DNA of 64,000 bases from Candidatus Methanoperedenaceae archaeon GB37. Lineage in GTDB: Archaea > Halobacteriota > Methanosarcinia > Methanosarcinales > EX4572-44. Position numbers and translations under genes: made by a program. The stretch is from the NCBI GenBank assembly GCA_905171695.1, contig LR991653.1:1228957-1292956 (forward strand). The letters run 5' to 3'. The first letter of the stretch is position 1. Each line of letters begins with the position of its first letter. The notes beneath the pieces are model-generated. The model saw only the letters and a program-made list of their open reading frames with translations, was not told the DNA's origin and did no database searches. This document shows positions 22,555-63,999 of the stretch, piece by piece.

Positions 22555-22556
22555 CT

Positions 22557-38531: not shown

Positions 38532-38548
38532 ACCACCGGGGGCGCCTC

Positions 38549-39718: not shown

Positions 39719-39728
39719 GGGGGGACAC

Positions 39729-40856
39729 GTGAAAATTTTAGTTTTAAACTGGCAAGATATAAAAAATCCTAATGCAGGTGGGGTTGAAGTCCATCTACAT
39801 GAGATATTCAGAAGAATTGTCAAAGAACATGAAGTTTTATTAATTTCATCAAGATTTAAAGGTTGTAAAAAAAGTGAAACTATCGATGGAATCAAAGTAA
39901 TCAGAATTGGAAATAAATATTTTTTTAACTTTTCTGCTTTTTTTTACTATATAAGAAAACTGAAATCTGAACATTTTGATGTTATTGTCGATGACTATAG
40001 CAAATTACCACTTTTCACACCTCTTTACATCAGGAAAAAACCACTGGTAACAATAATGCATGGAACTTTTGAACGTGGGGAGATGTTATTCAAAAGTCTT
40101 TCGCCGCCAATAGCCGCTTTTGCATATCTCTTAGAGAGATTGGTACCTTTTGTTTATAAAGACGTCCCGATACTAACAGCAACTAATGGACTCAGTTTAA
40201 AAGAGAAACTCTTAACATTAGGAATATCAGAACAAAATATTAACTTAATTCCCGCTGGTGTTGATGATACTTTATACAAGCCAAAAACAAAAGCAGATGA
40301 GAAACCTTTAGTTTTATACTTTGGGCGGGTTACAAAATATAAGCAGATAGATCACCTGATTCAAAGTTTTAAAATTACTAAAGAGGAGATACCCGATGCT
40401 AAATTGATAATAGCAGGGAGAGGAAATTATAAGGAGCTTAGAGAACTTGTTGAAAAATTGGATTTGGCAAACTCTGTCAATTTAGTGGGAGAAACATCTG
40501 AAGAAGAAAAGGTTAGATTACTCCAAAAGGCATGGATATTGGTTATACCATCAATGAATGAAGGGTGGGGTTTTGTAGTGACAGAAGCAAATGCCTGCGG
40601 GACTCCTGTGATTGGATATGATATCCCTGGTCTAAAAGATTCAATAAAAAACGGTGAAACAGGTTTACTTGTTCCTTATGGAGATATAGAGAAGCTGGCA
40701 GAGACAATGAGTAGCGTACTGAAGGATGCAAAGTTAAGGGAAAAACTTGGTCACAATGCTTTGAAATGGGCATCAAACTTCAACTGGGATAAGTCTTCAG
40801 AGAAATTCATAACAAAATTAGAAGAAATAGCAAATTCAGAAGGTGTGATTTTATGA
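39729..40856 (+). CDS. GT4-family glycosyltransferase
   Basis: 'ILVLNWQDIKNPNAGGVEVH' and 'PSMNEGWGFVVTEANACGTPVIGYDIPGLKDSI'. GTG at 39729 preferred, because the tracked TTG at 39684 overlaps the previous gene. Confidence 0.8.
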   Translation: MKILVLNWQDIKNPNAGGVEVHLHEIFRRIVKEHEVLLISSRFKGCKKSETIDGIKVIRIGNKYFFNFSAFFYYIRKLKSEHFDVIVDDYSKLPLFTPLYIRKKPLVTIMHGTFERGEMLFKSLSPPIAAFAYLLERLVPFVYKDVPILTATNGLSLKEKLLTLGISEQNINLIPAGVDDTLYKPKTKADEKPLVLYFGRVTKYKQIDHLIQSFKITKEEIPDAKLIIAGRGNYKELRELVEKLDLANSVNLVGETSEEEKVRLLQKAWILVIPSMNEGWGFVVTEANACGTPVIGYDIPGLKDSIKNGETGLLVPYGDIEKLAETMSSVLKDAKLREKLGHNALKWASNFNWDKSSEKFITKLEEIANSEGVIL

Positions 40857-41078
40857 TAAAGTTTGCTTTAATTGAGTCAAATTACGGCAGCGCACCCAAT
40901 CGCAGAGCTGCGGGACATGATTCGTGCCACTGCTTAGTCGTCGGGTTAGCAATTGAACCATCAGTGTTCATAATGCACCAACGCTTAAAAAATTTCGTCC
41001 TTAACTTTGTCCCAACACAGCAAAACTGGGGGGTATAGTAATCAAATTAACGAAATGGAGAAGTCAAAGGTAATATCC

Positions 41079-42554: not shown

Positions 42555-42839
42555 AGACAGATTAACCAAACATAGAAAGTTAATAAGGAGACCGATTAGA
42601 AATGGGTTATATTAAAAATAACGAGCAGCGTCGTGAAGCTAAGTAATTGGAGAGATTAGAAAGGAATGAAGAACTTTCAAATCGACATTTTTTTGGGTAC
42701 TGCTGTATTGTACCATCTCCTTAATGTCAATGCGGTGATGAAGAAGCGAATAGAGCCGCTAAGATCCTGCGGAATAGTATTACTCGGTGTCAAAGTGGCA
42801 GAGGAATACAACAGATAAGCCAATTAGGGAGGTGAAAAA

Positions 42840-45800: not shown

Positions 45801-46004
45801 GTCAATGATGAAGAAATTAAACCACTACCGTTGTATTCCATTATAAATGGCTTCTGGATAAATAAAACCGGGGAATATGATGTGGAAATAGCGTATAAAC
45901 CACAAGAATTCTTCTACATTGGAGCAACAATTTCTTCAGTTGCAATCATCGTCTGTATAGGATTTTTAATCTTTAATTGGAGAAAGACATTTAGGAGGAG
46001 ATAA
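42840..46004 (+). CDS. Giant polytopic membrane protein (about 12+ N-terminal TM helices, large extracytoplasmic domain, C-terminal TM anchor); GT-C-like glycosyltransferase candidate
   Basis: First-loop 'GDLIFP' acidic motif, 'FRDPNKWEG', 'EEYYMVNNWLANQNGDFKVSWLP'. No WWDxG oligosaccharyltransferase motif seen. GGGAGG lies 8 nt upstream of the ATG. Confidence 0.55.
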   Translation: MRHGELFMKLLIKTSPFLLISVVSVAVLCKVLFTDGLIMCGDLIFPLCSVDRYLSCYTYPLWSQYGSFSAFFGLTRLPIVAFVVAIASVLCVSMETVAKAHLLGILILTGLSMFYAANMLLKEYGKDEKVTFIAAMIGALIYMLNPWSLIRVSHIWLLVGYALAPLILVFFVKALKNNEMKYFIAVALLWALSSASLVYAILIGILILSWLVFSTVLHATTITKPEVLNNVKSTTFTVLLCLILSAFWIVPYILSFASPETVYSGIKITDDSIDLFSRNSNVLNVVRVMGYWFREVNYWPYSQVLYLHWLLASFILPLFAFSSLLLNYNNKYVLYFSIMGLFFIFMAKGTQNPASSAYGWLIFNVPFFEVFRDPNKWEGPLILVFCFLISFTIQKILQTGLKKSHMNWKKSTLVLFIFALSFILFIAPSVNGWFGDKYVPLKMPEEYYMVNNWLANQNGDFKVSWLPPYNGRGTTWGSPITGPFEILSSNRPTIGNIHPMTPFTAHYYEYIYSESLLTNKTVYFGKYLSILGSRYILFHDDIVRAEEEAKIAIANLKSQKDLEFVKKDGFIYIFKNKNNNSQVFIPSQNFIVGGDLNIATSLNVIDAFDPSSSGLLYTDQVKVKNYPEVDGIIFNSKNEINDIAFAQIDDQYFIAPSTYTNRFSPTEVWSTTGLNDDWIAYFRFKSLTNPWEFDYNKGIAISDVSGSSSPHTLVIPVNIQKSDTYELYARVLENPDGGKLTVSFDGESFDIVTVDKASNFVWKKIGTFNLSGGEHSMVLVNNNGFNAVNVFALMPQEMAERYFDNAWNFVKGKKIIYFLEGESDFDSGIVSDRFGGEASQGRVVILQEKATTSINILRNSSYKVAIRAFVCPDNNPLILEISDKKFEVNLTDKEGKLKWIYLDPIFLQKGQHSLQILPEGETIIDSLVVYSTTNSDETINDVFKHPRSATILSYKEIDPTKYVIHVNSQEPFMLAFTEAYDPLWRAYVNDEEIKPLPLYSIINGFWINKTGEYDVEIAYKPQEFFYIGATISSVAIIVCIGFLIFNWRKTFRRR

Positions 46005-49108: not shown

Positions 49109-51117
49109 AGATCTTCAGTTTGAAGAGTTATGGTATATCCTGTTTTGCAGTATTTTTCTATCTTTTCATCTCTTTTCTCATTCTATTTTATTTTAAAGGA
49201 AATTATATATTAACGTTGGATATGGTCTTCCCGTGTAAAAATTCTTTTGAAGAGTACTTTTATGGTTTCAGTCCTCCTGTTTGGGGCGGAACTCTGCCCA
49301 TACACGCAACTATGAAGTTCTCCAGCATAATGCCTGCATGGTTGCTGCAGAGAATTTACCTCTCTTTAATCATACTTCTCGCTGGAATCTCTATGCATCT
49401 CCTGGTGAAGACAGAGTCTTCCGCTCCAAAGTACTTTGCAGGCATCCTTTATGCCGTGAATCCGTTTGTCTATGTGAGATTTCTTGCAGGGCACTGGTTC
49501 ATCCTGCTTGCCTATTCAATCATGCCCTTTGCAGTTAAATCCTTTATCGATCTGCTTGAAGACGGGAAGAGGAGGAATATTTTAAAGTCCCTCTTCCTGA
49601 CGACCCTCGTAGGTGCCATCAATTCCCATATTCTTGTCCTCTTGTCTCTATTATACGTGGTTTTGGCGGCTTTTAAGTTGTACCATGTAAAGAGCGAAGT
49701 GGGTGCTGTAAAAAGACTGCTTGCCTCTCTATCCATACTTGTAGTGCTATACCTCTTGCTCAACCTATACTGGCTCCTCCCTCTACTCACTGCAGACGCA
49801 ACGTTGATACACCAGATATCAGAGGCTGACATGTATCTATTCGCCACAAAGACCTCAGCCTTCAATGCGGTCTTCACGATCGCAAGCATGTATGGGTTCT
49901 GGCGAGGCGGGTATCTCTATCCACAGGACTTTATTCCCCACTGGTATCTCTTCTTTCTCTTCATCCTTTTCTTGGCAGTGCACGGATTTATCAGCAATTG
50001 CAGGAGTAAGACTCTCAGCCTGCCTGTGAGATCCTTTGCAGTAGTTGCAGTGATTGCAGTGGTCCTGGGTTCTGGTGTGTATGGACCGTTCCATTCATTC
50101 TTTGAACTCTTATTTAACAACATATTCTTCTTTAGGGGTCTGAGAGATTCTCACAAGTTTGCCGCGCTTCTCGCCTTTTCATACTCATACCTCGGGGCGC
50201 TTGGGGTCTATGAATTTGAAAAGATAGCGCGCAGCGCCAGTATCACTGATTCATACAGGAAAATAGGTGCGCTGGCAGTCGTTCTCTTGGCACTGATAAC
50301 ACCTTTTCTTTACTCTTTCACGATCTTCAACGGCTTCTGGGGACAGATGAATACTACGGACTACCCGGACGACTGGTATCAGGTTAATGAATTACTTAAT
50401 CGGGATGATGAAGATTTTAACGTGCTTTTCCTCCCATGGCACGCATACATGGACTTCAAGTGGATTCCTAATACCCAGAAGAGGGTTGTGAATCCTGCTT
50501 CAGGCTTCTTCGAGAAGCCTGTGATTCAAGGGTGGAATATGGAGTCAGGGGGCATATACTCCCAATCCACCAACCCGGCTCAGCGCTACGTAGAATCTTT
50601 GCTGTATAATAGAAGTAATATAACCAGTTTTGGTGAGAAGATGGTTATTTTAGATGTGAAATACGTGCTTTTGACAAAGGAAGTAGATTACGATGAATAT
50701 TTCTTTCTGTTCAACCAGACTGACTTAGAACTGATAAAAGAGACTGAAAATTTCTACGTGTTCAAAAATAATCATACTGTCTCTCGATTTTACCGTTCGC
50801 CTACCCCTGTCACTCTTGAATCCTGGAGAGAACCCGATTTTGTCGAGTCTCTAACACCTATCAGCTACAAAGAAAACTCTCCTGTTAAATTCGATGTGCG
50901 AGGAGAGAGTGGCTTCATCGTCTTCGTTCCACCGAACCTGGACTCTCGATACTGGGAATTCGAGGGCACGCCCTCTCATCTGGACGGCTTTTATGCGGTT
51001 TATCCGGCTGGTGAGGGATCCATTTACTACACTCGGTTCAATATATGCCTCATCGGGTATCTTCTCTCACTTCTCACGCTGATAGGTATTTTAGGAACTC
51101 TCAATCATTGGATCTGA
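49105..51117 (+). CDS. Polytopic membrane protein paralogous to 42840..46004; GT-C-like candidate
   Basis: Shares 'LDMVFP' (against GDLIFP), 'LRDSHKFAA' (against FRDPNKWEG), 'DDWYQVNELLNRDDEDFNVLFLP' (against EEYYMVNNWLANQNGDFKVSWLP) and a C-terminal TM anchor. Confidence 0.55.
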   Translation: MKIFSLKSYGISCFAVFFYLFISFLILFYFKGNYILTLDMVFPCKNSFEEYFYGFSPPVWGGTLPIHATMKFSSIMPAWLLQRIYLSLIILLAGISMHLLVKTESSAPKYFAGILYAVNPFVYVRFLAGHWFILLAYSIMPFAVKSFIDLLEDGKRRNILKSLFLTTLVGAINSHILVLLSLLYVVLAAFKLYHVKSEVGAVKRLLASLSILVVLYLLLNLYWLLPLLTADATLIHQISEADMYLFATKTSAFNAVFTIASMYGFWRGGYLYPQDFIPHWYLFFLFILFLAVHGFISNCRSKTLSLPVRSFAVVAVIAVVLGSGVYGPFHSFFELLFNNIFFFRGLRDSHKFAALLAFSYSYLGALGVYEFEKIARSASITDSYRKIGALAVVLLALITPFLYSFTIFNGFWGQMNTTDYPDDWYQVNELLNRDDEDFNVLFLPWHAYMDFKWIPNTQKRVVNPASGFFEKPVIQGWNMESGGIYSQSTNPAQRYVESLLYNRSNITSFGEKMVILDVKYVLLTKEVDYDEYFFLFNQTDLELIKETENFYVFKNNHTVSRFYRSPTPVTLESWREPDFVESLTPISYKENSPVKFDVRGESGFIVFVPPNLDSRYWEFEGTPSHLDGFYAVYPAGEGSIYYTRFNICLIGYLLSLLTLIGILGTLNHWI

Positions 51118-51880
51118 GTGCCCCGAAGAAGAGGCACTCGTCTCTCGGTATCAGAGGGATCTCTTGGGCCTCTCCATCCCCCCGGTCTCTCATGTATAGC
51201 CCTGTGCCTCTTGCAATGACCGCTGGCACTCCTTCGCTTGCCTCTCCCATCAGGAGTTGTGCAGCGCTTGCAAGGTTGTCTGCGATCGCTCTCTGCGTGA
51301 TTCTGAGTGGCTTGCCATAGAGATCTCTTCTGCCACGGGCATCTTCCACTGGTTCTATCCCACTGCATCCAAGTGCAACCCCGATCGTTCCGAGTCGGAG
51401 GGGCTGTGTGCGACTATCACTTATGATAACAGCACACCTGCACCCATAGTGCTCTTCAAGAGCGCTTCGTATCTCTCTAGCACTCGCTGTTGGGTTGAGG
51501 GGCATCAACGTGACATGTCCCTCTGGCGCGTTCGAGGAGTCAATCCCGGTATTCGGTGATAGAACGCCCCGTGTGATCGTGAGCACGACGCCCGGTACAC
51601 CGCCGATTATCTCGTCAGCCTCTCTCAGTATGAGCTCCATCTCGCGTGGTTCGATCATGTACTTCTCAGCGAGCCTCAAAGCCTCCTCGGTGGGCGTTAC
51701 GCTGCTCAGGTCAACGAGTCGCCCCTCGGTCGTTGCAACAGCCGACTCTGCGATTATGAAGATGTCGCCATCCTCTGGTGTGATGCGCTCCTTCTCCATC
51801 GATCCTATGAGAGCGTCAGAGATCCTGTCCTCTGGGGTTAGGATTGGTGTTCTCACCGGGATAAAGACCAATTGCTGCAT
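51101..51880 (-). CDS. cofE: Coenzyme F420-0:L-glutamate ligase
   Basis: 'PEDGDIFIIAESAVATTEGR' and 'AVIISDSRTQPLRLGTIGVALG'. Confidence 0.85.
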   Translation of the reverse strand: MQQLVFIPVRTPILTPEDRISDALIGSMEKERITPEDGDIFIIAESAVATTEGRLVDLSSVTPTEEALRLAEKYMIEPREMELILREADEIIGGVPGVVLTITRGVLSPNTGIDSSNAPEGHVTLMPLNPTASAREIRSALEEHYGCRCAVIISDSRTQPLRLGTIGVALGCSGIEPVEDARGRRDLYGKPLRITQRAIADNLASAAQLLMGEASEGVPAVIARGTGLYMRDRGDGEAQEIPLIPRDECLFFGALRSND

Positions 51881-51886: not shown

Positions 51887-53122
51887 TTAGAGGTACTCTT
51901 TTAATCGTAGAATTGCACAGTACTCTCCACACATGCTGCAGATGCCACCAGTCTCCCTGCGCATCTCCTCTGGTCTTCGAGGCTCGATCGCATGCGAGAG
52001 CTGCCCACTCCAATCGAGCATACTTCTCTTAACTGCAAGTCTGCGATCCCTATCTGATGGCATGTACTTGATGCTGTCACCGATATGGGCTGCTATCCTG
52101 AAAGCCGTTAAACCTTCTCTCACGTCTTCCACGCCTGGGAGGCAGATGTGCTCGGCAGGTGTTACTGCACAGAGATAATCAGCCCCGGCTCCACTTGCGA
52201 GAGCTGCCCCGATACTTGCCGCAATATGGTCATATCCAACCGCCACATCGGTTGGCAAGGGGCCTGCAACGAAGAGTGGGCGATCCGCGACCTCTTTATG
52301 GTATCGCACAGACTCTGGTATGAGTGCTGGCGCCACATGCCCGCCCATACCCTCGATTATCACCTGCACACCTGCTTTGTTTGCCTCCTCTGCAAGCCGT
52401 GCATTGAGCTCCAGCTCCTCTCTCTGCAAGCAATCGGGCATGTCATGAACACATCCGCTTCGAAGACTGTTTCCGAGAGATAATACCACATCCCTCTCAC
52501 GAAGGATCTCGAGTATCTCGTCGAAGTGCTCAAGAAACGGGTTATCTCTATTATTCTTCAGCATGCAAAGACTCGTGAGACTACCACCCTTCGATACCAT
52601 GGTAAGGATTCGTCTGCTCTTCTTCAACTTCAGGACCAGCTCTCGCGTGATTGTATGGATCACGATCGAGCTCACACCAGACCTGACATCCTCCTCTATC
52701 CGCGAGAGTATATCCCTATCTCTCATCGTCCATCCATTCTCAGCCACACACTGATAAATCGGAACTGTTGTGAGTGGAATCGTGGTGCTGGCGAGGATCT
52801 GGCGTCGTATCTCCTCGAGATCTCCACCCATCGAGAGATCTGTTATGGTATCTGCAGAATAAGCCTCTGCAACCCTTGCCTTCTCAACCTCGAGATCGGT
52901 CTCTCTCGATGCTGTGGATGTTCCGATGTTGACATTGACCTTTGTCCGAAGCCCCTTCCCAATGCCGCAGACGCCTCTCCTGCCTCCCTTGCGAGTCATG
53001 ATGACGGTTCTGCCACTTGCAATATCAGATCTGAGGAGTTCTGGCTCGATCTCTTCTTCCATTGCAACTCTCTTCATCTCTCCTGTAACGATGCCATCGG
53101 TTGCAGACTCTATCTGTGTCAA
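51887..53122 (-). CDS. thiC: Phosphomethylpyrimidine synthase
   Basis: 'TITDLSMGGD', 'IEGMGGH' and the C-terminal 'CSMCGEYCA'. Start taken at the TTG at 53122 ((M)TQIESATDGIVTGEM). The tracked extension to 53305 runs through a tRNA gene. Confidence 0.85.
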   Translation of the reverse strand: MTQIESATDGIVTGEMKRVAMEEEIEPELLRSDIASGRTVIMTRKGGRRGVCGIGKGLRTKVNVNIGTSTASRETDLEVEKARVAEAYSADTITDLSMGGDLEEIRRQILASTTIPLTTVPIYQCVAENGWTMRDRDILSRIEEDVRSGVSSIVIHTITRELVLKLKKSRRILTMVSKGGSLTSLCMLKNNRDNPFLEHFDEILEILRERDVVLSLGNSLRSGCVHDMPDCLQREELELNARLAEEANKAGVQVIIEGMGGHVAPALIPESVRYHKEVADRPLFVAGPLPTDVAVGYDHIAASIGAALASGAGADYLCAVTPAEHICLPGVEDVREGLTAFRIAAHIGDSIKYMPSDRDRRLAVKRSMLDWSGQLSHAIEPRRPEEMRRETGGICSMCGEYCAILRLKEYL

Positions 53123-53209
53123 GATGAACGCTCCATAACTCTTCCAAACCTGCTGTTTTATTACGATACGCTTAAATTCGATGAAAGCGATCTCTTCGGC
53201 TGTCACAGA

Positions 53210-53283
<74 letters not shown>

Positions 53284-53311
53284 TCATGGATAGTTCGCCT
53301 TTCAATCACTT

Positions 53312-54481
53312 TTATCTCTTCACCACCTTCTTCACAAGTTCAGCCAGGCGATCCGAGTTCAGTTCCTGCTTCCTCTCCCGACACTCTTTTATGACGTCGA
53401 CGAGTTCGCATAACTGATCCCGCGAGAGGTCGTGGTATCCCATGTGCTTCAGCACTCCAAGGAGCGCTCTTCTCCCGGTATGCTTTCCAAGTATGAAGCT
53501 CCGCTCTGCACCTATCAGCTCTGGCGGATAAGCCTCGTAAGTGATAGGATTCTCGAGTATGGCCGCGACGTGTATGCCTGACTCGTGTGCAAATGCATTT
53601 CTACCAACTATCGACTTGTTCGATGCAACCTTCACACCCGAGCACTCCTCAACGAGTCTGGAGAGGCTTGTGAGCCTCGATAGATCGTACTTATCGATCC
53701 CGTGCTCGAGGCGGAGTGCAAGGAGAACCTCTTCGAGCGCTGCATTACCACTCCGCTCACCTATGCCGTTTACCGTGGTATGCAACTGTTTCACTCCCGC
53801 TTCTGCTGCTGTGATCGTGTTTGCAGTTGCCATCCCGAGATCGTCGTGGCAGTGAATGCATAACTCGCTCTTTCTCACACTATCTTTGATCTCACTGACG
53901 AGGTACTCTGTGGTGGCTGGCGTGAGAATGCCGACCGTGTCTGCAATGCTCACATAATCTGCGCCACGCGCCTCTGCCGCGAGGAATATATCCTTCAACC
54001 TGGGTATGGGGGTACGGGTTGCATCCTCTGCTGCAAACCGAACCACGACACCATGCGACTTGGCATACTCAAGGGTATCAAGCGCTCTCTCCCGCACGGT
54101 CTCATACCTCGAGTGATACTTGTACTCGATATGGATATCTGAGGTTGCGATGAAGATACTGATGATGTCAACGTCACAATCGAGTGCTATCTCCACATCC
54201 TCTCTCTTCGAACGTGCAAGAGAGCAGATCTTGGCATCAAGTCCGAGCTGTGCGACTCGCTTTATGGTCTCCTTCTCAACACTGGAGACGACCGGAAAAC
54301 CTGCTTCGATGATCTCAACACCGATCTCGTCAAGCCGCTCTGCAAGCCTGATCTTCTCATCCATTGTGAACGCAGCCCCAGGAGTCTGCTCACCATCCCG
54401 GAGCGTAACATCACAGATCTCAACCTCAGGTGGCCTTCGCCCGATGGAATCATAGTAGATATTCTTTGAGAGGAGATCCAT
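53312..54481 (-). CDS. aksA: Homocitrate synthase-type enzyme (short LeuA/NifV/AksA family, no regulatory domain); probable coenzyme B biosynthesis
   Basis: 'ICDVTLRDGEQTPG' and 'HCHDDLGMATANT'. 389 aa, so it lacks the LeuA C-terminal domain. Confidence 0.7.
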   Translation of the reverse strand: MDLLSKNIYYDSIGRRPPEVEICDVTLRDGEQTPGAAFTMDEKIRLAERLDEIGVEIIEAGFPVVSSVEKETIKRVAQLGLDAKICSLARSKREDVEIALDCDVDIISIFIATSDIHIEYKYHSRYETVRERALDTLEYAKSHGVVVRFAAEDATRTPIPRLKDIFLAAEARGADYVSIADTVGILTPATTEYLVSEIKDSVRKSELCIHCHDDLGMATANTITAAEAGVKQLHTTVNGIGERSGNAALEEVLLALRLEHGIDKYDLSRLTSLSRLVEECSGVKVASNKSIVGRNAFAHESGIHVAAILENPITYEAYPPELIGAERSFILGKHTGRRALLGVLKHMGYHDLSRDQLCELVDVIKECRERKQELNSDRLAELVKKVVKR

Positions 54482-54512: not shown

Positions 54513-55016
54513 TCAACGCTCGAAGAGTTCGGTATCGATCACACTATCCAGCACGTAATCAAAATCGATATGATCATACCAGCCTGCTCGCTCAAAGATC
54601 CCCATGAAACAGAGGCCTATAACAAGCCCATTGCCACCAGTTATCGTTTCAACGAGCCTCGCCACTTCAACTGGGTCGACACCGATCTTCGGCATCGCAA
54701 GCCCGCCGAGTACCGCGACGGTATCGCCATGAAAATCAACCTCGCGTCCAAGCTGCATCCCCTGTGGAGTTGGGACGATCTCCCGTGCATGCTCGAGATC
54801 AAGACCAGCGACAAAGACCATCTCCTTTCCAGAGTCTCTGAGAGCATACGCCAGAAGCTCGGCAAAGGGGGTGCAGAAACCGATCGAACCGACGAAGACT
54901 ATCCGCTTAGAATCCTTCACAAGCTCCCTGAAGGGTATCATCATGCCGGCAAGTGCAGGCTGCTTCGAAACAGATCTCATCACAACAATCCTCCAAGACC
55001 AGCCATCTCCTATCAC
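54513..55016 (-). CDS. Conserved archaeal hypothetical protein (possibly DUF2124/COG4029-like)
   Basis: 'RIVFVGSIGFCTPFAELLAYALRD'. Family name recalled from memory and unverified. The start could be an internal Met. Confidence 0.4.
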   Translation of the reverse strand: MIGDGWSWRIVVMRSVSKQPALAGMMIPFRELVKDSKRIVFVGSIGFCTPFAELLAYALRDSGKEMVFVAGLDLEHAREIVPTPQGMQLGREVDFHGDTVAVLGGLAMPKIGVDPVEVARLVETITGGNGLVIGLCFMGIFERAGWYDHIDFDYVLDSVIDTELFER

Positions 55017-55143: not shown

Positions 55144-55848
55144 ATGAAGTTGCTCGTAAGCCCGATTAATGTCGAGGAGGCACAGATCGCTGTAGAAGGC
55201 GGTGCAGATATCATCGATGTGAAGAATCCGAGGGAAGGGTCGCTCGGTGCGAACTTTCCATGGGTCATCAAGAGTGTCAGGGATGCTGTGAAAGAACCAT
55301 TGAGCGCTACAATTGGCGATTTTAACTTCAGACCAGGGACTGCTTCTCTCGCTGCACTCGGCGCTGCCGTCTCCGGCGCAGATTATATAAAAATTGGATT
55401 ATTTGATATTCAGACGCGAGAACAGGCATATAAAATGGCAGAGAGCGTTACAAAATCAGTTAAAGAATACGATCCAAATAAGAAGGTAGTAATAGCTGGA
55501 TATTCTGATTATAAGCGAATAAATTCCATATCGGTATTTGAACTGCCCGCTGTAGCAGGCGATGTCGGCGCCGACGTGGTGATGATGGATACAGGCATCA
55601 AAGACGGGAGTTCAACCTTTGAGTTCCTGAGAGATGAAGAGATCAGCGAGTTCGTTGACCTCGCGCGCCAGCACGGGATTCAAACAGCGCTTGCAGGATC
55701 TCTCAGATTCGAGGACATCGATGCACTCAACGAGATAAATCCTGACATAATCGGTGTGCGTGGATGCGTCTGTGGCGGCGATCGCAGCGCTTCAATCAAG
55801 CTCGAACTTGTGAGAGAACTTAAAAACTCCTTGAACGGATCCCAATAG
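55144..55848 (+). CDS. mfnB: (5-formylfuran-3-yl)methyl phosphate synthase (methanofuran biosynthesis)
   Basis: 'MKLLVSPINVEEAQIAVEGGADIIDVKNPREGSLGA', a DUF556/MfnB pattern. Confidence 0.8.
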   Translation: MKLLVSPINVEEAQIAVEGGADIIDVKNPREGSLGANFPWVIKSVRDAVKEPLSATIGDFNFRPGTASLAALGAAVSGADYIKIGLFDIQTREQAYKMAESVTKSVKEYDPNKKVVIAGYSDYKRINSISVFELPAVAGDVGADVVMMDTGIKDGSSTFEFLRDEEISEFVDLARQHGIQTALAGSLRFEDIDALNEINPDIIGVRGCVCGGDRSASIKLELVRELKNSLNGSQ

Positions 55849-55885: not shown

Positions 55886-57544
55886 TTAAGAGGGGCATCC
55901 GTTCTCCTTCCAGCCACGTAGCGCGTAGTATCTATCGAGTTCTTCTTCAAATCCAGCTGGTTTCATTATCTCTGGCAGCGTGTCATCCTCACGGTTGAAG
56001 CCTCGCTTGCAGTTGAACTCTCGTTCCATCTGAACGATCCTACTCCCCAGTCTCTGCATGTATTCCTCGCTAGCGTCTCCTGTAATCTTTGACAAGACCT
56101 TCAGGTAGTCTTCGAGTGTGTAGAACCTGACTGAGAACTTACAGAGCGAGATCGAGTCGAGTACCGCGTTTCTGTTCTCGTTGTATATTACCCGCTCTGC
56201 CTTTCCACTTATATTGTTTCTCCCAGGGTCTCCGTACTCTTCGATGTACTCCATGCTGTAGAGGTGATCGGCGCCGCGGTTCGATACCGCGTAGGAGAGC
56301 CCCTGCCCTGCTGCCCCACGAGCGTCGTGTCCAGGGAGGTCCATGCCCTTCACGGTGTAGGATGGGACTCTGCATCTCTCTGCGAAAGCTCTGGCGCCGC
56401 AAGCAAGTTCTGCACCGATCCCCTCCCTTTTAGCTATCAATTCAATCACTTCGTGCACCTTCTCGCCATCACCCCACTCGATCTCGTACTGAACGCGCCC
56501 ATTCTCACTTGCCTCCATCAAAGTCGCGATTGCAGCACCTGTCGATAGCGTGTCAAGCCCATATCTGTTGCAGAGGTAATTTGATTTTATGATGTCGTCA
56601 AGGTCGTTTACACAGAGGTTCGATCCGAAGCTCATCAGTGTCTCGTACTCTGGCCCCTCTGTTATTATCCCGTGCTTCTTGCTCTTTGTCACTCGCTTAC
56701 ATGCAATGAGACAACTGTGACAGGTGCTCCGGTTGATCGTGTACTCGCGGAGTGCCTCGCCGTTTATCATCTTAGCATCTTCGTAGACGGTTGTTGAGTA
56801 GTTTCTGGTTGGGAGTGCATTGTTATCATTTGCTACCTGAAGAATGCTCGATGTTCCCATCAACTTCAGACCTGCAACACCGTCAACGACCTTCTTCCAG
56901 AGGCCTGCCTCGATATCACGATACTGGTCTGATGGAATCGATGTGTTACCGGTTGCAACGATCGCTTTCAGGTTCTTGCTGCCCATCACAGCGCCGAGTC
57001 CGCCACGACCGAACGCTCGATGGAGCTGTGTCATGATATTTGCAAAGTAGACACCTCGCTCCCCCGCGGTGCCTATGACAAGGATATTTCGAAAGCGCAC
57101 CTTGCACTCCATCTTCAATCTCATCGTGGTGCTGAAGACGTCAGATCCCCAGAGGTGGGAAGCGTCTCGAAACTCGACACCACTCTCATCGATCCATAGA
57201 TAGAGTGGTGAGGATGCTCGTCCCTCGATTATCACACCACTGTAGCCTGTGCGGAGAAGTTCGCACCCGAAGTTCCCACCCGCGTTGGAGCTGAAGATAG
57301 TCTCTGTGAGTGGTGAGATGCTCGTTGTGCTGTGGCGAGCAGAGAATGGAATTGAGGAGCCTGTGAGCGCACCTGGGGTGAATATCAGTTTGTTCTCCTG
57401 GTGGAGAGGCTCTACGCTCGGCTCAACCTCCCTCGTGAAGAGAGCTACACCGAGACCTCTGCCACCAATAAACGACGAAACCTCAGGATCGACCTCTTCA
57501 ACATCACCAGTCTCTCTCCTAAGATTCACACGCAGGATCTTCAT
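55886..57544 (-). CDS. aor: Aldehyde:ferredoxin oxidoreductase family (tungstopterin) enzyme
   Basis: 'MKILRVNL...GGRGLG' N-terminus, [4Fe-4S] ligand motif 'CHSCLIAC' and 'GLDTLSTG'. Start taken at 57544. Confidence 0.85.
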   Translation of the reverse strand: MKILRVNLRRETGDVEEVDPEVSSFIGGRGLGVALFTREVEPSVEPLHQENKLIFTPGALTGSSIPFSARHSTTSISPLTETIFSSNAGGNFGCELLRTGYSGVIIEGRASSPLYLWIDESGVEFRDASHLWGSDVFSTTMRLKMECKVRFRNILVIGTAGERGVYFANIMTQLHRAFGRGGLGAVMGSKNLKAIVATGNTSIPSDQYRDIEAGLWKKVVDGVAGLKLMGTSSILQVANDNNALPTRNYSTTVYEDAKMINGEALREYTINRSTCHSCLIACKRVTKSKKHGIITEGPEYETLMSFGSNLCVNDLDDIIKSNYLCNRYGLDTLSTGAAIATLMEASENGRVQYEIEWGDGEKVHEVIELIAKREGIGAELACGARAFAERCRVPSYTVKGMDLPGHDARGAAGQGLSYAVSNRGADHLYSMEYIEEYGDPGRNNISGKAERVIYNENRNAVLDSISLCKFSVRFYTLEDYLKVLSKITGDASEEYMQRLGSRIVQMEREFNCKRGFNREDDTLPEIMKPAGFEEELDRYYALRGWKENGCPS

Positions 57545-57604
57545 AGTATACTCAGGTTTGGGTGTTGAATTATATATGCTTATTCTATTCAACGGGGATG
57601 TCAA

Positions 57605-57933
57605 CTCGTTTGGGTGTTATCTCAGAGCCGAGATTTTTCCAGAATATAAGCTTATTGGTTGTGTTCTCTTCTTTGGTCTCAGACGTTTAAAATATATCAA
57701 AATATATCAGAGATAAATAAATATTTTTAAAAAATATTGTATCTTTATAACGGTTTATCATGATCAAAGCAAAAAACTTAAATACAAACAGCATCTCATA
57801 TCCACCATTGAGGATTGTGATGGTGAATGATGGTACACAGAAACGAGTACTCTATAGGATGAGTATTGAGTATTCTGTGAATTGTGTACCAGAACCTGAG
57901 ACATTCTCAAAAAATATGGAGGAACGAATATAA
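57605..57933. promoter_or_regulatory. Divergent AT-rich promoter/leader region between aor and mcrB
   Basis: Tandem aaatatatca x2 (57691-57710), near-palindrome aatatttttaaaaaatatt (about 57719-57738), TATA-like ctttataa (57743-57750), and GGAGG 10 nt upstream of the mcrB ATG. No transcription start can be assigned. Confidence 0.4.
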
Positions 57934-59337
57934 ATGGCCTATCTAACAGAAAAAATAGATCTATACGGGGACAATGGTAAGGTGCTGGAATCAGACATTC
58001 CACTCGAAGCTGTAACACCAGTGCAGAACCCCGCTGTAAGAGAGCTTGCAAGCATCTTCAAGCGTTCCGTTGCAGTGAACCTTGGAGGAGCACAGAAAGC
58101 CCTCTCAACTGGACACTATGCCAACGAGTATATACACTTTCCAGATATACCGAACAAAGATAAACTTGGAATAAAGAGTTCTCCCGGTGGCAAATACCCA
58201 CCAAAGTCGGTTAAAGTACGAACCATGGACCTGCCACTCGTAGACGATGCAGATGACATCGCGGCACGGCTCAAAGAGAGACTCCAGGTCAACCCTGACG
58301 ATGGAACAGAAGTCAGAGTAATGAAGAAGGGGAACGTGCTCTACGTCAAGATCTCGGAGCAGCTTGCAAATACAGGTGTCGAGTACACAACGGCACTCAC
58401 AACAACTGCACAGGCAATGACCGATCTTGTGATGGAGAAGTACGATCTCGACTTCCACGCTTCCCCACTCGTCCACTGTGCATTCTATGGACGATACCCA
58501 CAGACATACGAGTTCATGGGCGGAAACGTGATCTCACTACTTGCCGCAAGCTGTGCAAATGAGGGACCAGGATTCGCCATGCGAAACATTATGGCAAACC
58601 ATATTGTGGCAGCAACAAGGAAGAGAACTCTGGAAGCTGTCGCTCTGAGCTCAACGCTGGAAGCCATTGGTCATGTTGAGATGGGTGATGCAATCGGCAG
58701 GTGGAGACGGTGGCAGGCACTCGTGCATGCATGCCAGGGACTGAACGCAAACAATGTGGTCTACGACCTTGTGAAGGAAGCCGGCCATGGCTGCACAGGT
58801 GATGTTGTTGCAGCAACCGTCGGAAGAGCACTTGAAGATGGAATCATATCTGTAAAGAAGACACTGCCATCTGGCTACAAGTTCTACACAGCAAACGATC
58901 CCTCGATGTGGAACGCCTATGTATGCGCAGGACTCGTTGCAGCAGTTATAGTCAACCAAGGTGCGGCACGAGCGGCACAGGGTGTATCATCAACACTGCT
59001 CTACTTCAACGACCTGATCGAGCACGAGACAGGACTACCCCACGCAGGCTATGGTGATGGCATGGGTAATGGTGTAAGCTTCTCGTTCTTCAGCCACGCT
59101 ATATATGGTGGCGGAAGCCCCGGTATCTTCAGCGGCAACCACATCGTGACCCGCCACTCCAAGGGATTCGCAATACCCGTCATCGCAGCGGCGGTATCTC
59201 TCGATAGCGGCACAGCGGTCTATGGGCCTGAGGCAACATCAGGACTCGTAGGAGATATCTTTGGCGAAGTGGACCTTATACGCAGGCCAATGGAAGCGAT
59301 CGCAAGTGCAGCAGCAGAGATAAAGGACAAGTTCTGA
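57934..59337 (+). CDS. mcrB: Methyl/alkyl-coenzyme M reductase beta subunit
   Basis: 'GRYPQTYEFMGGN', 'NQGAARAAQGVSSTLLYFNDLIEHETGLP' and 'FFSHAIYGGGSPGIFSGNHIVTRHSKGFAIP'. Confidence 0.9.
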   Translation: MAYLTEKIDLYGDNGKVLESDIPLEAVTPVQNPAVRELASIFKRSVAVNLGGAQKALSTGHYANEYIHFPDIPNKDKLGIKSSPGGKYPPKSVKVRTMDLPLVDDADDIAARLKERLQVNPDDGTEVRVMKKGNVLYVKISEQLANTGVEYTTALTTTAQAMTDLVMEKYDLDFHASPLVHCAFYGRYPQTYEFMGGNVISLLAASCANEGPGFAMRNIMANHIVAATRKRTLEAVALSSTLEAIGHVEMGDAIGRWRRWQALVHACQGLNANNVVYDLVKEAGHGCTGDVVAATVGRALEDGIISVKKTLPSGYKFYTANDPSMWNAYVCAGLVAAVIVNQGAARAAQGVSSTLLYFNDLIEHETGLPHAGYGDGMGNGVSFSFFSHAIYGGGSPGIFSGNHIVTRHSKGFAIPVIAAAVSLDSGTAVYGPEATSGLVGDIFGEVDLIRRPMEAIASAAAEIKDKF

Positions 59338-59351
59338 AGAGGTGAAGAAGA

Positions 59352-60152
59352 ATGGTATATCAAAGACAATTTCTCCCAGCAGACGATAGAGTCACAAAAA
59401 ACAGAAAGAAAGTGGTGGATCCAAGCGTTAAATTGGAGAAGATCCGAACACTTTCCGATAAGGACTTCCTGACCCTGATAGGACACCGACATCTCGGTGA
59501 AGCATACAGGTCAGTGAACCCACCACTTGCCGAGATCGGCGAGCCAGAGGATCCAATAAGAGAGCTTGTACCACCTACCGAAGGTGCAAAGGCAGGAGAC
59601 AGGGTGTGCACAATCATCATGACAGACTCGGTCTACAACCCACCGATCGCACACTACACCAGGGCATGGATGTACCACAATAGATTCAGAGGTATCGACA
59701 ACGGTGTCTACTCTGGACGAGTGACACTTGAGATGCGTGAGCGTGACCTTGAAGAGGCATGCAGGACCCTCTTCGAGACAGAGATCTGCGATGCGTCAAG
59801 GGATCAAGTCAGACAGTACACCTGCACAGGCCACAGCTGCAGGCTTGACCCAGACGGTATGATGTTTGATCCCATAGAGCGATGCATTATGTCAGGTGGT
59901 AACGTTGTCTACCAGAAAGACAGCTTCGGAAATCCTGTGGATACACCAATCAATATGGGCAAACCATTATCAGAGGAAGAACTCATAGAGAGAACGGTTG
60001 TATACAGGACGGATCGTGGTGAGCCGATGACACGCGAGGGCGATCCAGGAGCGCCAGATGAAGAGGTCAGAGAAGCACTCCAGTGGAGCCGCAGAATCCA
60101 GTGGCTCAGAATGCTCGGGAACATGGTTCCTGACAAGATAAAGGGAATGTAA
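59352..60152 (+). CDS. mcrG: Methyl/alkyl-coenzyme M reductase gamma subunit
   Basis: 'GAKAGDRV', 'MRERDLEE' and 'GHSCRLDPDGMMFD'. Confidence 0.9.
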   Translation: MVYQRQFLPADDRVTKNRKKVVDPSVKLEKIRTLSDKDFLTLIGHRHLGEAYRSVNPPLAEIGEPEDPIRELVPPTEGAKAGDRVCTIIMTDSVYNPPIAHYTRAWMYHNRFRGIDNGVYSGRVTLEMRERDLEEACRTLFETEICDASRDQVRQYTCTGHSCRLDPDGMMFDPIERCIMSGGNVVYQKDSFGNPVDTPINMGKPLSEEELIERTVVYRTDRGEPMTREGDPGAPDEEVREALQWSRRIQWLRMLGNMVPDKIKGM

Positions 60153-60166
60153 AGAGGTGAAATGAA

Positions 60167-61954
60167 ATGGTAAAATATCCAAAGCAATTGTTCTTAGAGA
60201 GCAAGAACTCAAAGATGAACTCGATAGAGATGAAATATGGTCAGGATCCAGCGATCAACAGAGCCGAGTTCCACGTATACGGTGGCGTAAGGCAGAGTAA
60301 GAGGAAATCAGAGGCATGGGAAGCAGCAAAGAGAATCACAAAAGAGCGCGGCATACCCAACTACAACCCCGATCTCCACCTGAAGGGCGCTCAGATGGGA
60401 CAGAAGGTCCTGCAGACCTACAGGATAACAGGTCTTGACCGCGAGTGGGCAGGTGGCGAGGACACACCCGCACACAAGGGATGGAAGCCAGGCACAGATA
60501 TCGCCGGGCTTGAAATGGATGACCTCAACTACGAGAACAACCCTGCAATGCAGCAGTGCTACGACGATATGCGAAGAACCGCCATCAATGGCCTTAGCAT
60601 TGCACACGAAACGATAGAGCGCAGATTCGGAAAAGAGGTCACGCCTGAGACGATCAACCTCTACTTTGAGATGCTCAACCACAACATCGGCGCAGGTGCG
60701 ATCATGATGGAGCACACAGCAGAGACAAACCCAGAACTGGTGAAAGACAGCTATGCCAAGTGCTTCACAGGAAACGATGAACTGGCAGACGCACTCGACC
60801 AGCGCTTCTTAATCGACATCAACAAGATGTTTCCGAAGTACCAGGCGGATCAGATCAAGGCAGAGGTTGGAGACAGAATCTTCCAGGTGGCACGCATACC
60901 CACGATGGCAGTACGCACATCAGACGGTGGACTATCACGTGCATGGGTAGGACAGCAGGCAAGCCTTGCCTTCCTCTGTGCATATGATATTCCAGCAGGC
61001 GATGCCGTTACAAGCGACTTCGTCTTCACAATCAAGCACGGTGATGTGGTCTTCATGGGAACACAGCTACCGTACAGGCGTGCCCAGCGGAACAACTCGG
61101 CAGGCGGTATTGCACTCGGATACTACTCAGACTGCAACCAGACAAGCCGCACGCCAGAGGCACTCGAAGGGCTTGACGGCGGAATTGACCCAGTAAAGGT
61201 CATAGTCGAAGCACTCACACCAGGATGCGTCATAACAGACCAGGGATGGCTGCACAACTATTTGGCAGGCGGATCATCAGGCTGGTCAAACTACATAATC
61301 TCAGTCTACACCGATGAGGTGCTCGAAGACTACGGATACCACGGCGCAATCTATGCAATGGACAAATGGAAGTGCGGAGTCGGCGAGGTCCCGAACACCT
61401 ACGAGAACATGATGACAATCGCTGAAGAGGTCTCACGATGGAGTCAGAAGAACTATGACGAGTACCCAGGACTTATGGAGGCACACTTCGGCGGCAGCCA
61501 GAGATACTCGATACAAGCAGCAGCATCTGGTGCGGCAGTCGGCGCAATGACAGGCGACCCTGACCTCGGCAACGCAGCGTGGCACTACAACACACCACTC
61601 TGCAAGGAACACTACCTCAGACTCGGATTCTACGGACACGACCTACAGGATCAGCAGAACATGGGACACACATACTCCTATCGCTCAGACCAAGGCATAC
61701 CATACGAACTCAAAGGGCCAAACTATCCAGACTTTGCAATGAACGTCGGGCACATGGGCGGATACATCGGAATCATCGCAGGAGCAGCACACGCACGTGG
61801 TGCAGCATACTCGACAAACCCGATCATCAAGGCAGCCTTTGCAGACCCCAACCTCCAGTTCGACTTCAGGTACCCACGCAGAGAGTTCGGAATCGGTGGA
61901 CTACGCCAGTTCATGCCAGCAGGCGAACGCGACGCAGTAATCCCACCACATTAA
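60167..61954 (+). CDS. mcrA: Methyl/alkyl-coenzyme M reductase alpha subunit, divergent
   Basis: 'GKEVTPETINLYFEMLNH', 'HFGGSQR', 'LGFYGHDLQDQ', 'GPNYPDFAMNVGH' and 'PAGERD'. Confidence 0.9.
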   Translation: MVKYPKQLFLESKNSKMNSIEMKYGQDPAINRAEFHVYGGVRQSKRKSEAWEAAKRITKERGIPNYNPDLHLKGAQMGQKVLQTYRITGLDREWAGGEDTPAHKGWKPGTDIAGLEMDDLNYENNPAMQQCYDDMRRTAINGLSIAHETIERRFGKEVTPETINLYFEMLNHNIGAGAIMMEHTAETNPELVKDSYAKCFTGNDELADALDQRFLIDINKMFPKYQADQIKAEVGDRIFQVARIPTMAVRTSDGGLSRAWVGQQASLAFLCAYDIPAGDAVTSDFVFTIKHGDVVFMGTQLPYRRAQRNNSAGGIALGYYSDCNQTSRTPEALEGLDGGIDPVKVIVEALTPGCVITDQGWLHNYLAGGSSGWSNYIISVYTDEVLEDYGYHGAIYAMDKWKCGVGEVPNTYENMMTIAEEVSRWSQKNYDEYPGLMEAHFGGSQRYSIQAAASGAAVGAMTGDPDLGNAAWHYNTPLCKEHYLRLGFYGHDLQDQQNMGHTYSYRSDQGIPYELKGPNYPDFAMNVGHMGGYIGIIAGAAHARGAAYSTNPIIKAAFADPNLQFDFRYPRREFGIGGLRQFMPAGERDAVIPPH

Positions 61955-61978
61955 ACAAACAAGACAAAAGAGAATACA

Positions 61979-62012
61979 GAGAGCAGAAAAACCTGCTCTC
62001 CTCTCACTTTTT
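61979..62012 (+). terminator. Hairpin plus T-run downstream of mcrA
   Basis: gagagcag-aaaaac-ctgctctc (perfect 8-bp stem, 61979-62000), followed by ttttt at 62008-62012. Confidence 0.5.
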
Positions 62013-62045
62013 CTATTACCACACCTATTTGATCTTTACTCATCG

Positions 62046-62243: not shown

Positions 62244-62400
62244 GCCGAGCCGACGCCGATTGAATATAACTTCATACAACTGCAAACTGCAACCGCTGAA
62301 AATGCATGGAGAGAACGTTAAGAAGAAAAAGTCAGAATGGATGAGGACTCCTGAGCGATCGAGTTCCACCCAATGTGCAGGTAAGTACGACCTCTTCTGA

Positions 62401-62474
62401 TGGGCTCGCGGAGATTCGAACTCCGGACCTTCGCCGTGTGAAGGCGATGTCATAACCAGCTAGACCACGAGCCC
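62401..62474 (-). tRNA. tRNA-Val (anticodon CAC); CCA not encoded
   Basis: Reverse complement GGGCTCGTGGTCTAGCTGGTTATGACATCGCCTTCACACGGCGAAGGTCCGGAGTTCGAATCTCCGCGAGCCCA. Confidence 0.85.
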
Positions 62475-62567
62475 AACACCGCGACCCAAATCTACCCTAC
62501 AATCAATATTAAGCCTATCGGTCTCTCTCAATAAGATTAATAACCTCTCAGCCCTTCATCAGGCTGC

Positions 62568-63035
62568 ATGCGATACACGTTATCCACGGATACACTCACG
62601 GTTACTGTAACACTCGACCACAGCATCGTCAAAAAGGTCACACTAAGAGAAGCCGACCAGAGTGTGGAGGATGTGGTGGAGAGTGGAGTTGACCTCCTCG
62701 ATGAGATCAGCGCTTACCTCAACGGGGGAAGAGTTGATTTCTCGAGATACGCCGTTGACCTTGAAGGACTCACAGACTTTCAGAGAAGGGTGCTTGGAAA
62801 GGTAAGGCAGATACCCTACGGCGTAGTCGTGACGTACGGAACGCTTGCGAGAGAGCTGCAGACGTCACCAAGAGCGATCGGCAACGCATTATCGAGAAAC
62901 CCGGCACCGATAGTGATTCCATGTCATCGTGTTATCGGCAAGCACGGAATCGGTGGCTTCACGAGTGGCGTAGCGATAAAAGAACACCTACTCCAGATCG
63001 AAGGCATCAGTATCGATCCATCCTCAAACAAGTGA
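62568..63035 (+). CDS. ogt: Methylated-DNA-protein-cysteine methyltransferase
   Basis: Active-site 'IPCHRVIG' and 'YGTLARELQTSPRAIGNAL'. Confidence 0.85.
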   Translation: MRYTLSTDTLTVTVTLDHSIVKKVTLREADQSVEDVVESGVDLLDEISAYLNGGRVDFSRYAVDLEGLTDFQRRVLGKVRQIPYGVVVTYGTLARELQTSPRAIGNALSRNPAPIVIPCHRVIGKHGIGGFTSGVAIKEHLLQIEGISIDPSSNK

Positions 63036-63074
63036 TATACTGGCAGCTCGCAGGGATAAAAAAGAGGTCTTGAG

Positions 63075-63147
63075 CGGGCGTGAAGGGATTCGAACCCCTG
63101 ACCTACAGCTTAGGAGGCTGCCGCCATATCCACTAGGCCACACGCCC
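63075..63147 (-). tRNA. tRNA-Arg (anticodon CCT)
   Basis: Reverse complement GGGCGTGTGGCCTAGTGGATATGGCGGCAGCCTCCTAAGCTGTAGGTCAGGGGTTCGAATCCCTTCACGCCCG. Anticodon loop CTCCTAA. Confidence 0.85.
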
Positions 63148-63171: not shown

Positions 63172-63999
63172 TCATATTAAGCTTGTCGGGGCCATAACAT
63201 ACAGCAACGAGACGAATACCGCTGCAGCAGCGGTTGACGCAAGATTCACACCGTTGTTCGTGAGAATTCCCCGCTGCTGGAGCGTCGCACCGAAGAGACT
63301 GTCAAGATTTGCGCCGAAGACACCCCCAACCGTTATCAAAGATATATATAGCGGGTGGAGTGGTACGAGACCGATCACGAGAGCGAAGACCGCCAAGAGA
63401 AGGGCGCCTCCGAGTGATGCTGCCTCACCCAAGAGTGTCACACCACCATCCGTGCCAGGTCTCGTTCTCCTGAGCGTGGTTATCATCAACGGAGCGCTCT
63501 TTGATGTCTGCCCGATCTCGCTTGCAAGGGTATCGGCGAGTGCTGTTGCAAGTGATGCAAGGTATGCAACGAGTATGACCTCGCTGTGCACTGGAATAGC
63601 GTGGTGCGCCACTGCAAGGCTTGCAGCTGGAAGAGCGTTCGAAAAGACGTTTCGGTATCCACGAACTCCGCTCTTTTCCTCCCCAACCCCCATTGATGCC
63701 TTGAAGTCGTATCTGTACCTCGTGAATCCGCTACCCACTGCAAAGAATAGTACGAGTGCGAGGAACCATCGCAGATCTGTGAATACTATGATCAGCATCC
63801 CGAGAAGTGCTGCTGTGATCATGGCGCTCACATCTGCCATCTCCTTCTTGTACGCCACGTAGCTTATGAGGAGTGAGAGAGCGATCGCTGCTATAATCGT
63901 CTCTATCGATGGCGCGTATCCGATGCTTGCAAAGAGCCAGATGCTCATAGTTGTGCCGACTACTCCGGTGTAGTCGTTCTCACGATGCGGTATGACCAT
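63172..63999 (-). CDS. DUF92/TMEM19-type polytopic membrane protein (start at or beyond the window edge)
   Basis: 'GGVFGANLDSLFGATLQ' near the C-terminus is typical of the DUF92 family. The first Met codon sits at 63999-63997, 1 nt from the window end. Confidence 0.55.
   Translation of the reverse strand: MVIPHRENDYTGVVGTTMSIWLFASIGYAPSIETIIAAIALSLLISYVAYKKEMADVSAMITAALLGMLIIVFTDLRWFLALVLFFAVGSGFTRYRYDFKASMGVGEEKSGVRGYRNVFSNALPAASLAVAHHAIPVHSEVILVAYLASLATALADTLASEIGQTSKSAPLMITTLRRTRPGTDGGVTLLGEAASLGGALLLAVFALVIGLVPLHPLYISLITVGGVFGANLDSLFGATLQQRGILTNNGVNLASTAAAAVFVSLLYVMAPTSLI

Follow-up and report, generated by a model that had tools for sequence, protein, structure and literature searches.

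An mcrBGA operon assigned to the ethyl-coenzyme M reductase of Candidatus Ethanoperedens thermophilum

A stretch of 64,000 nt from contig LR991653.1 (positions 1,228,957 to 1,292,956 of the forward strand; GenBank assembly GCA_905171695.1, Candidatus Methanoperedenaceae archaeon GB37), hereafter the window, carries a compact operon of three methyl-coenzyme M reductase (MCR) subunit genes, mcrB, mcrG and mcrA. The initial annotation of this DNA, made from the letters alone, had proposed a divergent alkyl-coenzyme M reductase (ACR) of an alkane-oxidizing archaeon, encoded by an operon reduced to BGA. A non-canonical ACR was thereby correctly recognized from raw sequence: the three predicted proteins are identical to those of the crystallized ethyl-coenzyme M reductase (ECR) of the GoM-Arc1 clade.

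Identity of the subunits and layout of the operon

The operon lies on the + strand and comprises mcrB (57934-59337; 1404 nt, beta subunit of 467 aa; FHEFKHOI_01410), mcrG (59352-60152; 801 nt, gamma subunit of 266 aa; FHEFKHOI_01411) and mcrA (60167-61954; 1788 nt, alpha subunit of 595 aa; FHEFKHOI_01412). The products match the Pfam domains MCR_beta_N and MCR_beta (E = 1e-48 and 2e-111), MCR_gamma (E = 2.5e-80), and MCR_alpha_N and MCR_alpha (E = 1e-91 and 2e-29), respectively, all far above the Pfam gathering scores; alpha, beta and gamma domains of the MCR/ACR superfamily are thus encoded together.

In a PDB sequence search, all residues of the three proteins (595/595, 467/467 and 266/266 for alpha, beta and gamma) were identical to chains A, B and C of entries 7B1S and 7B2C, named 'Ethyl-Coenzyme M reductase', each chain being matched at 100% along its entire length. 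The same McrA protein is also encoded, with the same neighbours, on NCBI assembly GCA_905171675.1. Furthermore, the published gene table of Candidatus (Ca.) Ethanoperedens thermophilum E50 agrees with the window in order and lengths throughout FHEFKHOI_01406-01415: FHEFKHOI_01406 (468 nt), mfnB (705 nt), aor_2 (1659 nt, reverse; FHEFKHOI_01408), a hypothetical gene (174 nt; FHEFKHOI_01409), mcrB (1404 nt), mcrG (801 nt), mcrA (1788 nt) and ogt (468 nt). The GC content of the window is 46.1%, against 46.5% published for E50 (PMC7175092). We conclude, with a probability of roughly 0.97, that mcrBGA encodes the ECR of Ca. Ethanoperedens thermophilum, an (alpha-beta-gamma)2 nickel-F430 enzyme; nothing found contradicts this identification.

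The locus is thus already known: its genome and transcriptome, metabolite data, expression in a heterologous host and the crystal structure have all been published, and its catalytic chemistry, cofactor and modifications are given here as reported for the identical protein. The phylogeny, alkyl-coenzyme M (alkyl-CoM) mass spectrometry, substrate tests and search for mcrC that the initial annotation had suggested as checks are likewise in print (PMC7175092; Hahn et al. 2021, as cited in PMC9081873).

The E50 genome contains only one MCR, with its three subunits on a single operon, and among the non-canonical MCRs its McrA stands on a branch of its own (Hahn et al. 2020, PMC7175092). In the source culture ethyl-CoM is formed from ethane, as detected by mass spectrometry; ethane is the only alkane that supports activity, no other alkane yields alkyl-CoM, and mcrA is expressed at about 9,790 reads per kilobase per million (RPKM) (PMC7175092). 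The enzyme of strain E50 has also been expressed in Methanococcus maripaludis (Shao et al. 2022, PMC9584954). According to the structural study (Hahn et al. 2021, Science 373:118, in PMC9081873), ECR exceeds MCR by 20 kDa through three insertions in alpha, one in beta and one in gamma, carries two new modifications (N2-methylhistidine and 3-methylisoleucine), and has methionine as nickel ligand, alphaTrp373, the cofactor dimethyl-F430 and a 33 Å hydrophobic ethane tunnel. As shown in this literature, ECR opens the anaerobic oxidation of ethane, a process that proceeds syntrophically with a sulfate reducer; the insertions in the three subunits, the extra methylated residues, the dimethylated F430 and the methionine ligand widen the active site and jointly form the tunnel. 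The enzyme enables archaea to use ethane in the absence of oxygen and is a model for the adaptation of a methane-forming enzyme to larger alkanes, a significance that the literature has already realized for this exact locus.

The layout described in the initial annotation, i.e. the order B-G-A with two 14-nt spacers (59338-59351 and 60153-60166, both on the + strand), was recovered to the nucleotide, as was a ribosome-binding site for each gene. Both spacers contain GAGGTG about 8 nt ahead of the next ATG, and a GGAGG precedes the ATG of mcrB by 11-15 nt; each mcr gene would accordingly be translated from its own site. There is no room for mcrD or mcrC between mcrB and mcrG because the spacers measure 14 nt, and the operon thus departs from the methanogen-type mcrBDCGA or mcrBDGA arrangement, in which mcrD, with or without mcrC, lies between these genes. 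The further claim that no mcrD- or mcrC-like open reading frame (ORF) occurs in the 64 kb also stood: a Pfam scan of 72 ORFs of the window, which took in each ORF of 55 aa or more from otherwise unannotated stretches, gave no match to MCR_C or MCR_D.

In the E50 gene table, mcrC is annotated far away, at FHEFKHOI_00813/00814, some 600 genes from mcrBGA, and no 'protein D' entry occurs in the portion of the table examined. Following this annotation, McrC would be supplied in trans from the distant locus, and McrD would be absent. This is in line with other alkane oxidizers, from which mcrD is absent and in most of which the operon is of the mcrBGA or mcrBAG type; ANME-1, a group of anaerobic methanotrophic archaea, likewise has mcrBGA, mcrC being encoded at another locus (Shao et al. 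2022, PMC9584954). The E50 mcrC is listed as two adjacent coding sequences of 765 and 183 nt, which could be a true split or a frameshift error of the long-read consensus.

Sequence signatures and rival readings of the enzyme

The subunits are genuine but divergent MCR homologues, since the Pfam domains are strong and both alpha and beta fail the cut-offs of the NCBIfam equivalogs for canonical methyl-coenzyme M reductase (TIGR03256, TIGR03257 and TIGR03259). Alpha reaches 613.2 bits against a cut-off of 767.75, and beta, with 514.0 bits against 516.25, falls narrowly below; gamma is the sole subunit to pass (243.6 against 172.1 bits). The best non-self PDB matches of alpha are canonical methanogen MCRs; they reach 536 bits, where the self-match scores 1407. 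The moderate identity to canonical enzymes judged by eye in the initial annotation is borne out by the comparison of McrA with Methanotorris formicicus (49% identity over 474 aligned positions, ~45% of full length). That annotation had also named what would overturn it, namely a McrA that groups with high identity inside a canonical methanogen or ANME-2 clade, and mcrC/mcrD next to the operon on a corrected assembly; McrA scores 613 bits where the canonical model demands 768, and neither mcrC nor mcrD adjoins the operon.

The subunits had further been described as longer than the textbook enzymes, which is the case for alpha (595 aa, against 548-579 aa in all other solved MCR alpha chains) and beta (467 aa, against 433-444 aa in other solved MCRs); gamma (266 aa) exceeds most (246-265 aa), the gamma of ANME-1 being longer at 279 aa. 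Compared with solved MCRs, alpha has additional residues at ~92-109 and ~332-341, small insertions at 370 and 401-402, and a longer N-terminus; beta has an insertion at ~59-91 with ~24 residues more than canonical McrB; and gamma has one at ~221-231 with 8 + 3 (~11) extra residues. The pattern of three alpha, one beta and one gamma insertions reported for ECR (PMC9081873) is thus present, with the alpha boundaries taken from our alignment and not from the authors' definition.

The nickel-ligand position of alpha is occupied by Met181 (IMMEH, 179-183), which aligns with the glutamine of the canonical VVQEH motif and agrees with the methionine ligand of ECR; its codon is at 60707-60709. Likewise as in ECR, Trp373 is found in the motif AGGSSGWS (367-374), where the canonical loop GG-VGF has phenylalanine. 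In an alignment of the four GoM-Arc1 McrA sequences (the window and three public genomes), Trp373 and the alpha insertions are kept in all.

One rival reading is an MCR that activates methane in an ANME-type methanotroph. ANME-1 also combines mcrBGA with an mcrC located elsewhere (PMC9584954), and the ccmAB-like and heme genes of the window would suit an electron-exporting lifestyle. The ANME-1 enzyme (3SQG), however, is the weakest of the 18 solved MCR matches, with 407 and 319 bits for alpha and beta against 1407 and 1053 for ECR, with which the proteins are identical, and the source culture made neither methyl-CoM nor, when given methane, sulfide (PMC7175092). With the 100% identity to ECR and the published substrate tests, this reading counts as already refuted, and we give it virtually no weight. 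A broader ACR that would also accept propane, butane or longer alkanes, like the enzymes of Syntrophoarchaeum and Methanoliparum, would be in keeping with the position of McrA in the non-canonical, multi-carbon branch of the phylogeny (PMC7175092). Only ethyl-CoM was detected, however, sulfide was produced only with ethane, and the fatty-acid oxidation pathway on which substrates of C3 and longer depend is absent from the organism (PMC7175092); the chamber and tunnel of ECR are, moreover, sized for ethane (PMC9081873), all of which renders a wider substrate range highly improbable.

The direction of catalysis is a separate matter. Isotope probing showed that the ethane pathway is fully reversible, as stated in the abstract of PMC7175092, which would allow for an enzyme that works in vivo mainly in the reductive direction, forming ethane from ethyl-CoM. 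However, the culture lives from oxidizing ethane with concomitant sulfate reduction, and the archaeon itself lacks a reductive pathway (PMC7175092), so that we consider a mainly reductive role very unlikely. The publications consulted describe no growth of Ethanoperedens with net formation of ethane. An ECR that oxidizes ethane, as published for the identical protein, remains our preferred reading.

Expression signals, the neighbouring aor_2 gene and the surroundings

The intergenic region between aor and mcrB (57545-57933, 389 nt) is poorly conserved in its aor-proximal part when compared with a second Ethanoperedens-type genome, the Guaymas Basin metagenome-assembled genome 'Methanosarcinales archaeon ex4572_44' (contig L001), and strongly conserved from ~57727 to the ATG of mcrB (L001 ~7500-7725). 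A putative promoter and 5' leader of mcrBGA is placed at 57720-57933 (+ strand) on the grounds of this conservation and of RPKM values, with an A/T-rich, TATA-like box at ~57744-57750. The leader also contains a stable hairpin (57831-57891, +): RNA folding of 57765-57940 gave -41.5 kcal/mol (z = -3.3; 0/200 shuffles as stable), and in ex4572_44 the stem arms are kept while an 11-nt deletion sits in the apical part.

The annotated 57-codon ORF at 57760-57933 (FHEFKHOI_01409) was considered as a small protein or a stand-in for mcrD and was rejected: it has no Pfam match, and indels of 3, 11 and 6 nt disrupt its frame in ex4572_44 though the DNA is conserved. It is probably non-coding and part of the transcribed leader. 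Its register-corrected expression (see below) is ~4,500-5,200 RPKM (Table S3, PMC7175092), because of which we regard the region as transcribed with the operon.

Downstream of mcrA, a terminator is predicted at 61978-62012 (+), consisting of the inverted repeat AGAGAGCAG/CTGCTCTCC (61978-62001) followed by TTTTT (62008-62012); hairpin detection reported it for the - strand, and its stem is equally present on the + strand. Homology to ex4572_44 stops at 62017, just past this element. The operon would thus be co-transcribed from the promoter in the aor-mcrB intergenic region via a conserved leader of ~170-200 nt, and transcription probably ends at the hairpin and T-run ~25-60 nt past mcrA. For promoter, transcription start, role of the leader and terminator, this outline is a prediction from sequence and from conservation between two genomes.

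Divergently from mcrB lies aor_2 (55886-57544, - strand; 552 aa), of the tungsten-type aldehyde:ferredoxin oxidoreductase (AOR) family (Pfam AFOR_N and AFOR_C, E = 5e-72 and 2.5e-102), which adjoins mcrBGA in ex4572_44 as well (83% aa identity). Positions 55893-62017 of the window align with L001 5679-11802 at 85.6% nucleotide identity over 6.16 kb, and this block of aor_2 and mcrBGA is the sole alignment between the window and the ~21.7 kb of L001; the flanks differ on both sides. The shared block begins at the 3' end of aor_2 and ends just after the predicted mcr terminator, and in the window it is followed by two tRNA genes.

AOR_2 is a neighbour of ECR and a possible functional partner. 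The general idea of a link between AOR and ECR was already raised by Hahn et al. [quoted passage not shown] The conservation of the block is compatible with such a link and not proof of it. That the conserved module forms a functional unit, with AOR_2 acting in the step from ethyl-CoM to acetyl-CoA, appears unlikely to us on present evidence. Several points weigh against it: in Ca. Argoarchaeum only mcrBGA matches the window, with no aor beside mcr; the corrected RPKM of aor_2 is about ten times below that of mcrA; and the 2024 pathway study makes no mention of AOR (PMC11493965).

The correction of RPKM values concerns the genome-wide sheet of Table S3 (PMC7175092). For each row, the gene length implied by the printed values was calculated as reads/(RPKM × 1.2079 million); in the available portion of the sheet the implied lengths equal, to the nucleotide, those of the gene two rows below (014xx) or one row below (006xx). 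The values printed beside aor_2 (11,282 reads; 6,653, 7,928 and 7,389 RPKM) imply 1,404 nt, i.e. mcrB, and the summary sheet of the same table assigns them to mcrB; values implying the 1,659 nt of aor_2 are 916, 924 and 954 RPKM. Recalculated in the same way, 3,805 RPKM belongs to mer (996 nt), and aor_1 has ~4,290-5,278 RPKM. The statement 'RPKM aor = 3,805 and 7,928' in the main text (PMC7175092) therefore gives the values of mer and mcrB, since the implied lengths match the shifted rows. The register shift could conceivably stem from text conversion; the numbers in the main text, however, coincide with the shifted values. Should the shift be real, the aor_2 gene beside mcr is moderately and not highly expressed, and the published expression support for it would appear to derive from misregistered values.

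Upstream of aor_2 the window contains cofE (51101-51880, -), thiC (51887-53119, -), tRNA-Val(gac) (53210-53283, +), an aksA-type homocitrate synthase gene (53312-54481, -), a gene for a DUF2124 protein (54513-55016, -) and mfnB (55144-55848, +); downstream of mcrA follow tRNA-Val(cac) (62399-62475, -), ogt (62568-63035, +), tRNA-Arg (63074-63147, -) and a gene for a DUF92 protein (63172-63999, -). At the gathering threshold, Rfam profiles detected only tRNAs in the window. The thiC gene is of full length (480 bits with Pfam; 475 bits with NCBIfam PRK13352, whose cut-off is 410) and has no row in the available portion of the E50 gene table, from which FHEFKHOI_01404 and the tRNA tags are also missing, and in which thiC_1 and thiC_2 are located elsewhere. 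The longest ORF for thiC (51887-53305, -) runs antisense across tRNA-Val (53210-53283, +); the gene was probably dropped by an annotation pipeline that discards coding sequences overlapping tRNAs, and its true start likely lies downstream of 53209.

The ccmAB and heme genes and the adjoining aor, which the initial annotation had taken to fit an oxidative, electron-exporting lifestyle, were described correctly. A CcmB-like permease and an ABC ATPase are encoded at 32140-33623 (-), with scores that fall just short of, or below, the equivalog cut-offs for CcmA and CcmB, and a siroheme decarboxylase AhbB (25268-25747, +) is followed by a CysG-N/precorrin-2 dehydrogenase (25752-26402, +). The latter two represent the siroheme branch of tetrapyrrole synthesis, which feeds both heme and F430.

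Two radical S-adenosylmethionine (SAM) genes, one B12-binding (41007-42554) and one of the SPASM type (37248-38531), were considered as methylators of ECR or F430 and rejected, as both score far below every NCBIfam cut-off, including that of the MCR glutamine C-methyltransferase model (123 bits against a cut-off of 360). Both lie 16-20 kb from mcrBGA within a low-GC glycosylation island (~34000-46000; GC 0.34-0.41, against ~0.50 around it), which was probably acquired horizontally. Besides the SPASM and B12-binding radical SAM genes, this surface-glycan set comprises genes for an epimerase, a nucleotidyl transferase, two GT4 glycosyltransferases and large GT-C (AftD-like) membrane proteins.

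Further observations concern more distant parts of the window. Two inverted insertion sequence copies of ~1,030 bp (9411-10438 and 12088-13114; 97-100% identical) bracket a different DDE transposase gene (10461-11867) in a composite-transposon-like arrangement with a GC content of 0.37-0.41 (9411-13114); in the left copy (9411-10438) the transposase is split into two ORFs. A cluster of genes whose products are secreted or located at the surface and carry PKD, VWA, cohesin-like and dockerin-like domains occupies 27-5263 and adjoins a gene for a membrane protein of the exosortase/archaeosortase family (2696-3268). The genes for RpoK, RpoN, S9, L13 and L18e (22158-24035, -) and for AhbB and CysG-N (25268-26402, +) are shorter than spurious antisense ORFs, and a longest-ORF gene call misses them because the antisense ORFs are longer; HisA was also among the genes recovered when all ORFs were listed, the spurious antisense ORFs being located at 22-26.4 kb and 7.4-8.2 kb.

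Comparison with related systems

The closest system is the ECR of Ca. Ethanoperedens thermophilum E50 itself (7B1S/7B2C), from which the enzyme of the window shows no difference at protein level; locus layout and gene lengths are equal. The enzyme of ex4572_44 follows, with 95, 94 and 89% identity for McrA, McrB and McrG, the same order B-G-A, the same divergent aor, and the same leader and terminator; its McrA keeps Met181, Trp373 and the insertions. The ex4572_44 locus differs in the leader indels and in its flanks, which are unrelated on both sides outside positions 55893-62017 of the window.

With canonical MCR (Methanothermobacter marburgensis, 1HBM; Methanotorris formicicus, 5N28), the enzyme shares the three-subunit architecture, the Pfam domains and ~49% identity in the McrA core, and the motifs of the F430, CoM and coenzyme B sites align throughout. 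It differs in its longer alpha (by 25-47 aa) and beta (by 23-34 aa), in the methionine in place of the glutamine nickel ligand, in Trp373 in place of phenylalanine, and in an operon without mcrD and mcrC; according to PMC9081873, the substrate of ECR is ethane instead of methane, and its F430 is dimethylated. The ANME-1 MCR (3SQG) resembles ECR in the BGA-only operon with mcrC elsewhere, in a modified F430 and in an oxidative syntrophy with sulfate reducers (PMC9584954), and differs in its 17^2-methylthio F430 and its substrate (PMC9081873).

The cold-adapted GoM-Arc1 archaeon Ca. Argoarchaeum ethanivorans (L002-L004), which also activates ethane (PMC7175092, PMC9081873), keeps the order B-G-A, and its alpha, beta and gamma subunits are only 69, 75 and 56% identical to those of the window; the same value of 69% has been published for its McrA and that of E50 (PMC7175092). 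Neither the 7.5 kb upstream nor the 10 kb downstream of its mcrBGA (L003) contains a gene for McrC, McrD or AOR, and a DDE transposase gene (L003 6730-7116) lies just upstream of mcrB. Its alpha subunit has a C-terminal extension of 16 aa relative to the McrA of the window; its longer N-terminus belongs to an untrimmed, GTG-started ORF, similarity starting at residue 18 of the window protein. The insertions REWAGxEDTPAHxGWxPG and GLDGGID and Trp373 are kept, whereas the nickel-ligand position carries the canonical glutamine (LIQEH) instead of methionine in both sequences (L002 and L003). Since Ca. Argoarchaeum, also an ethane activator, has glutamine at this position, the methionine ligand is not required for ethane activation across the clade.

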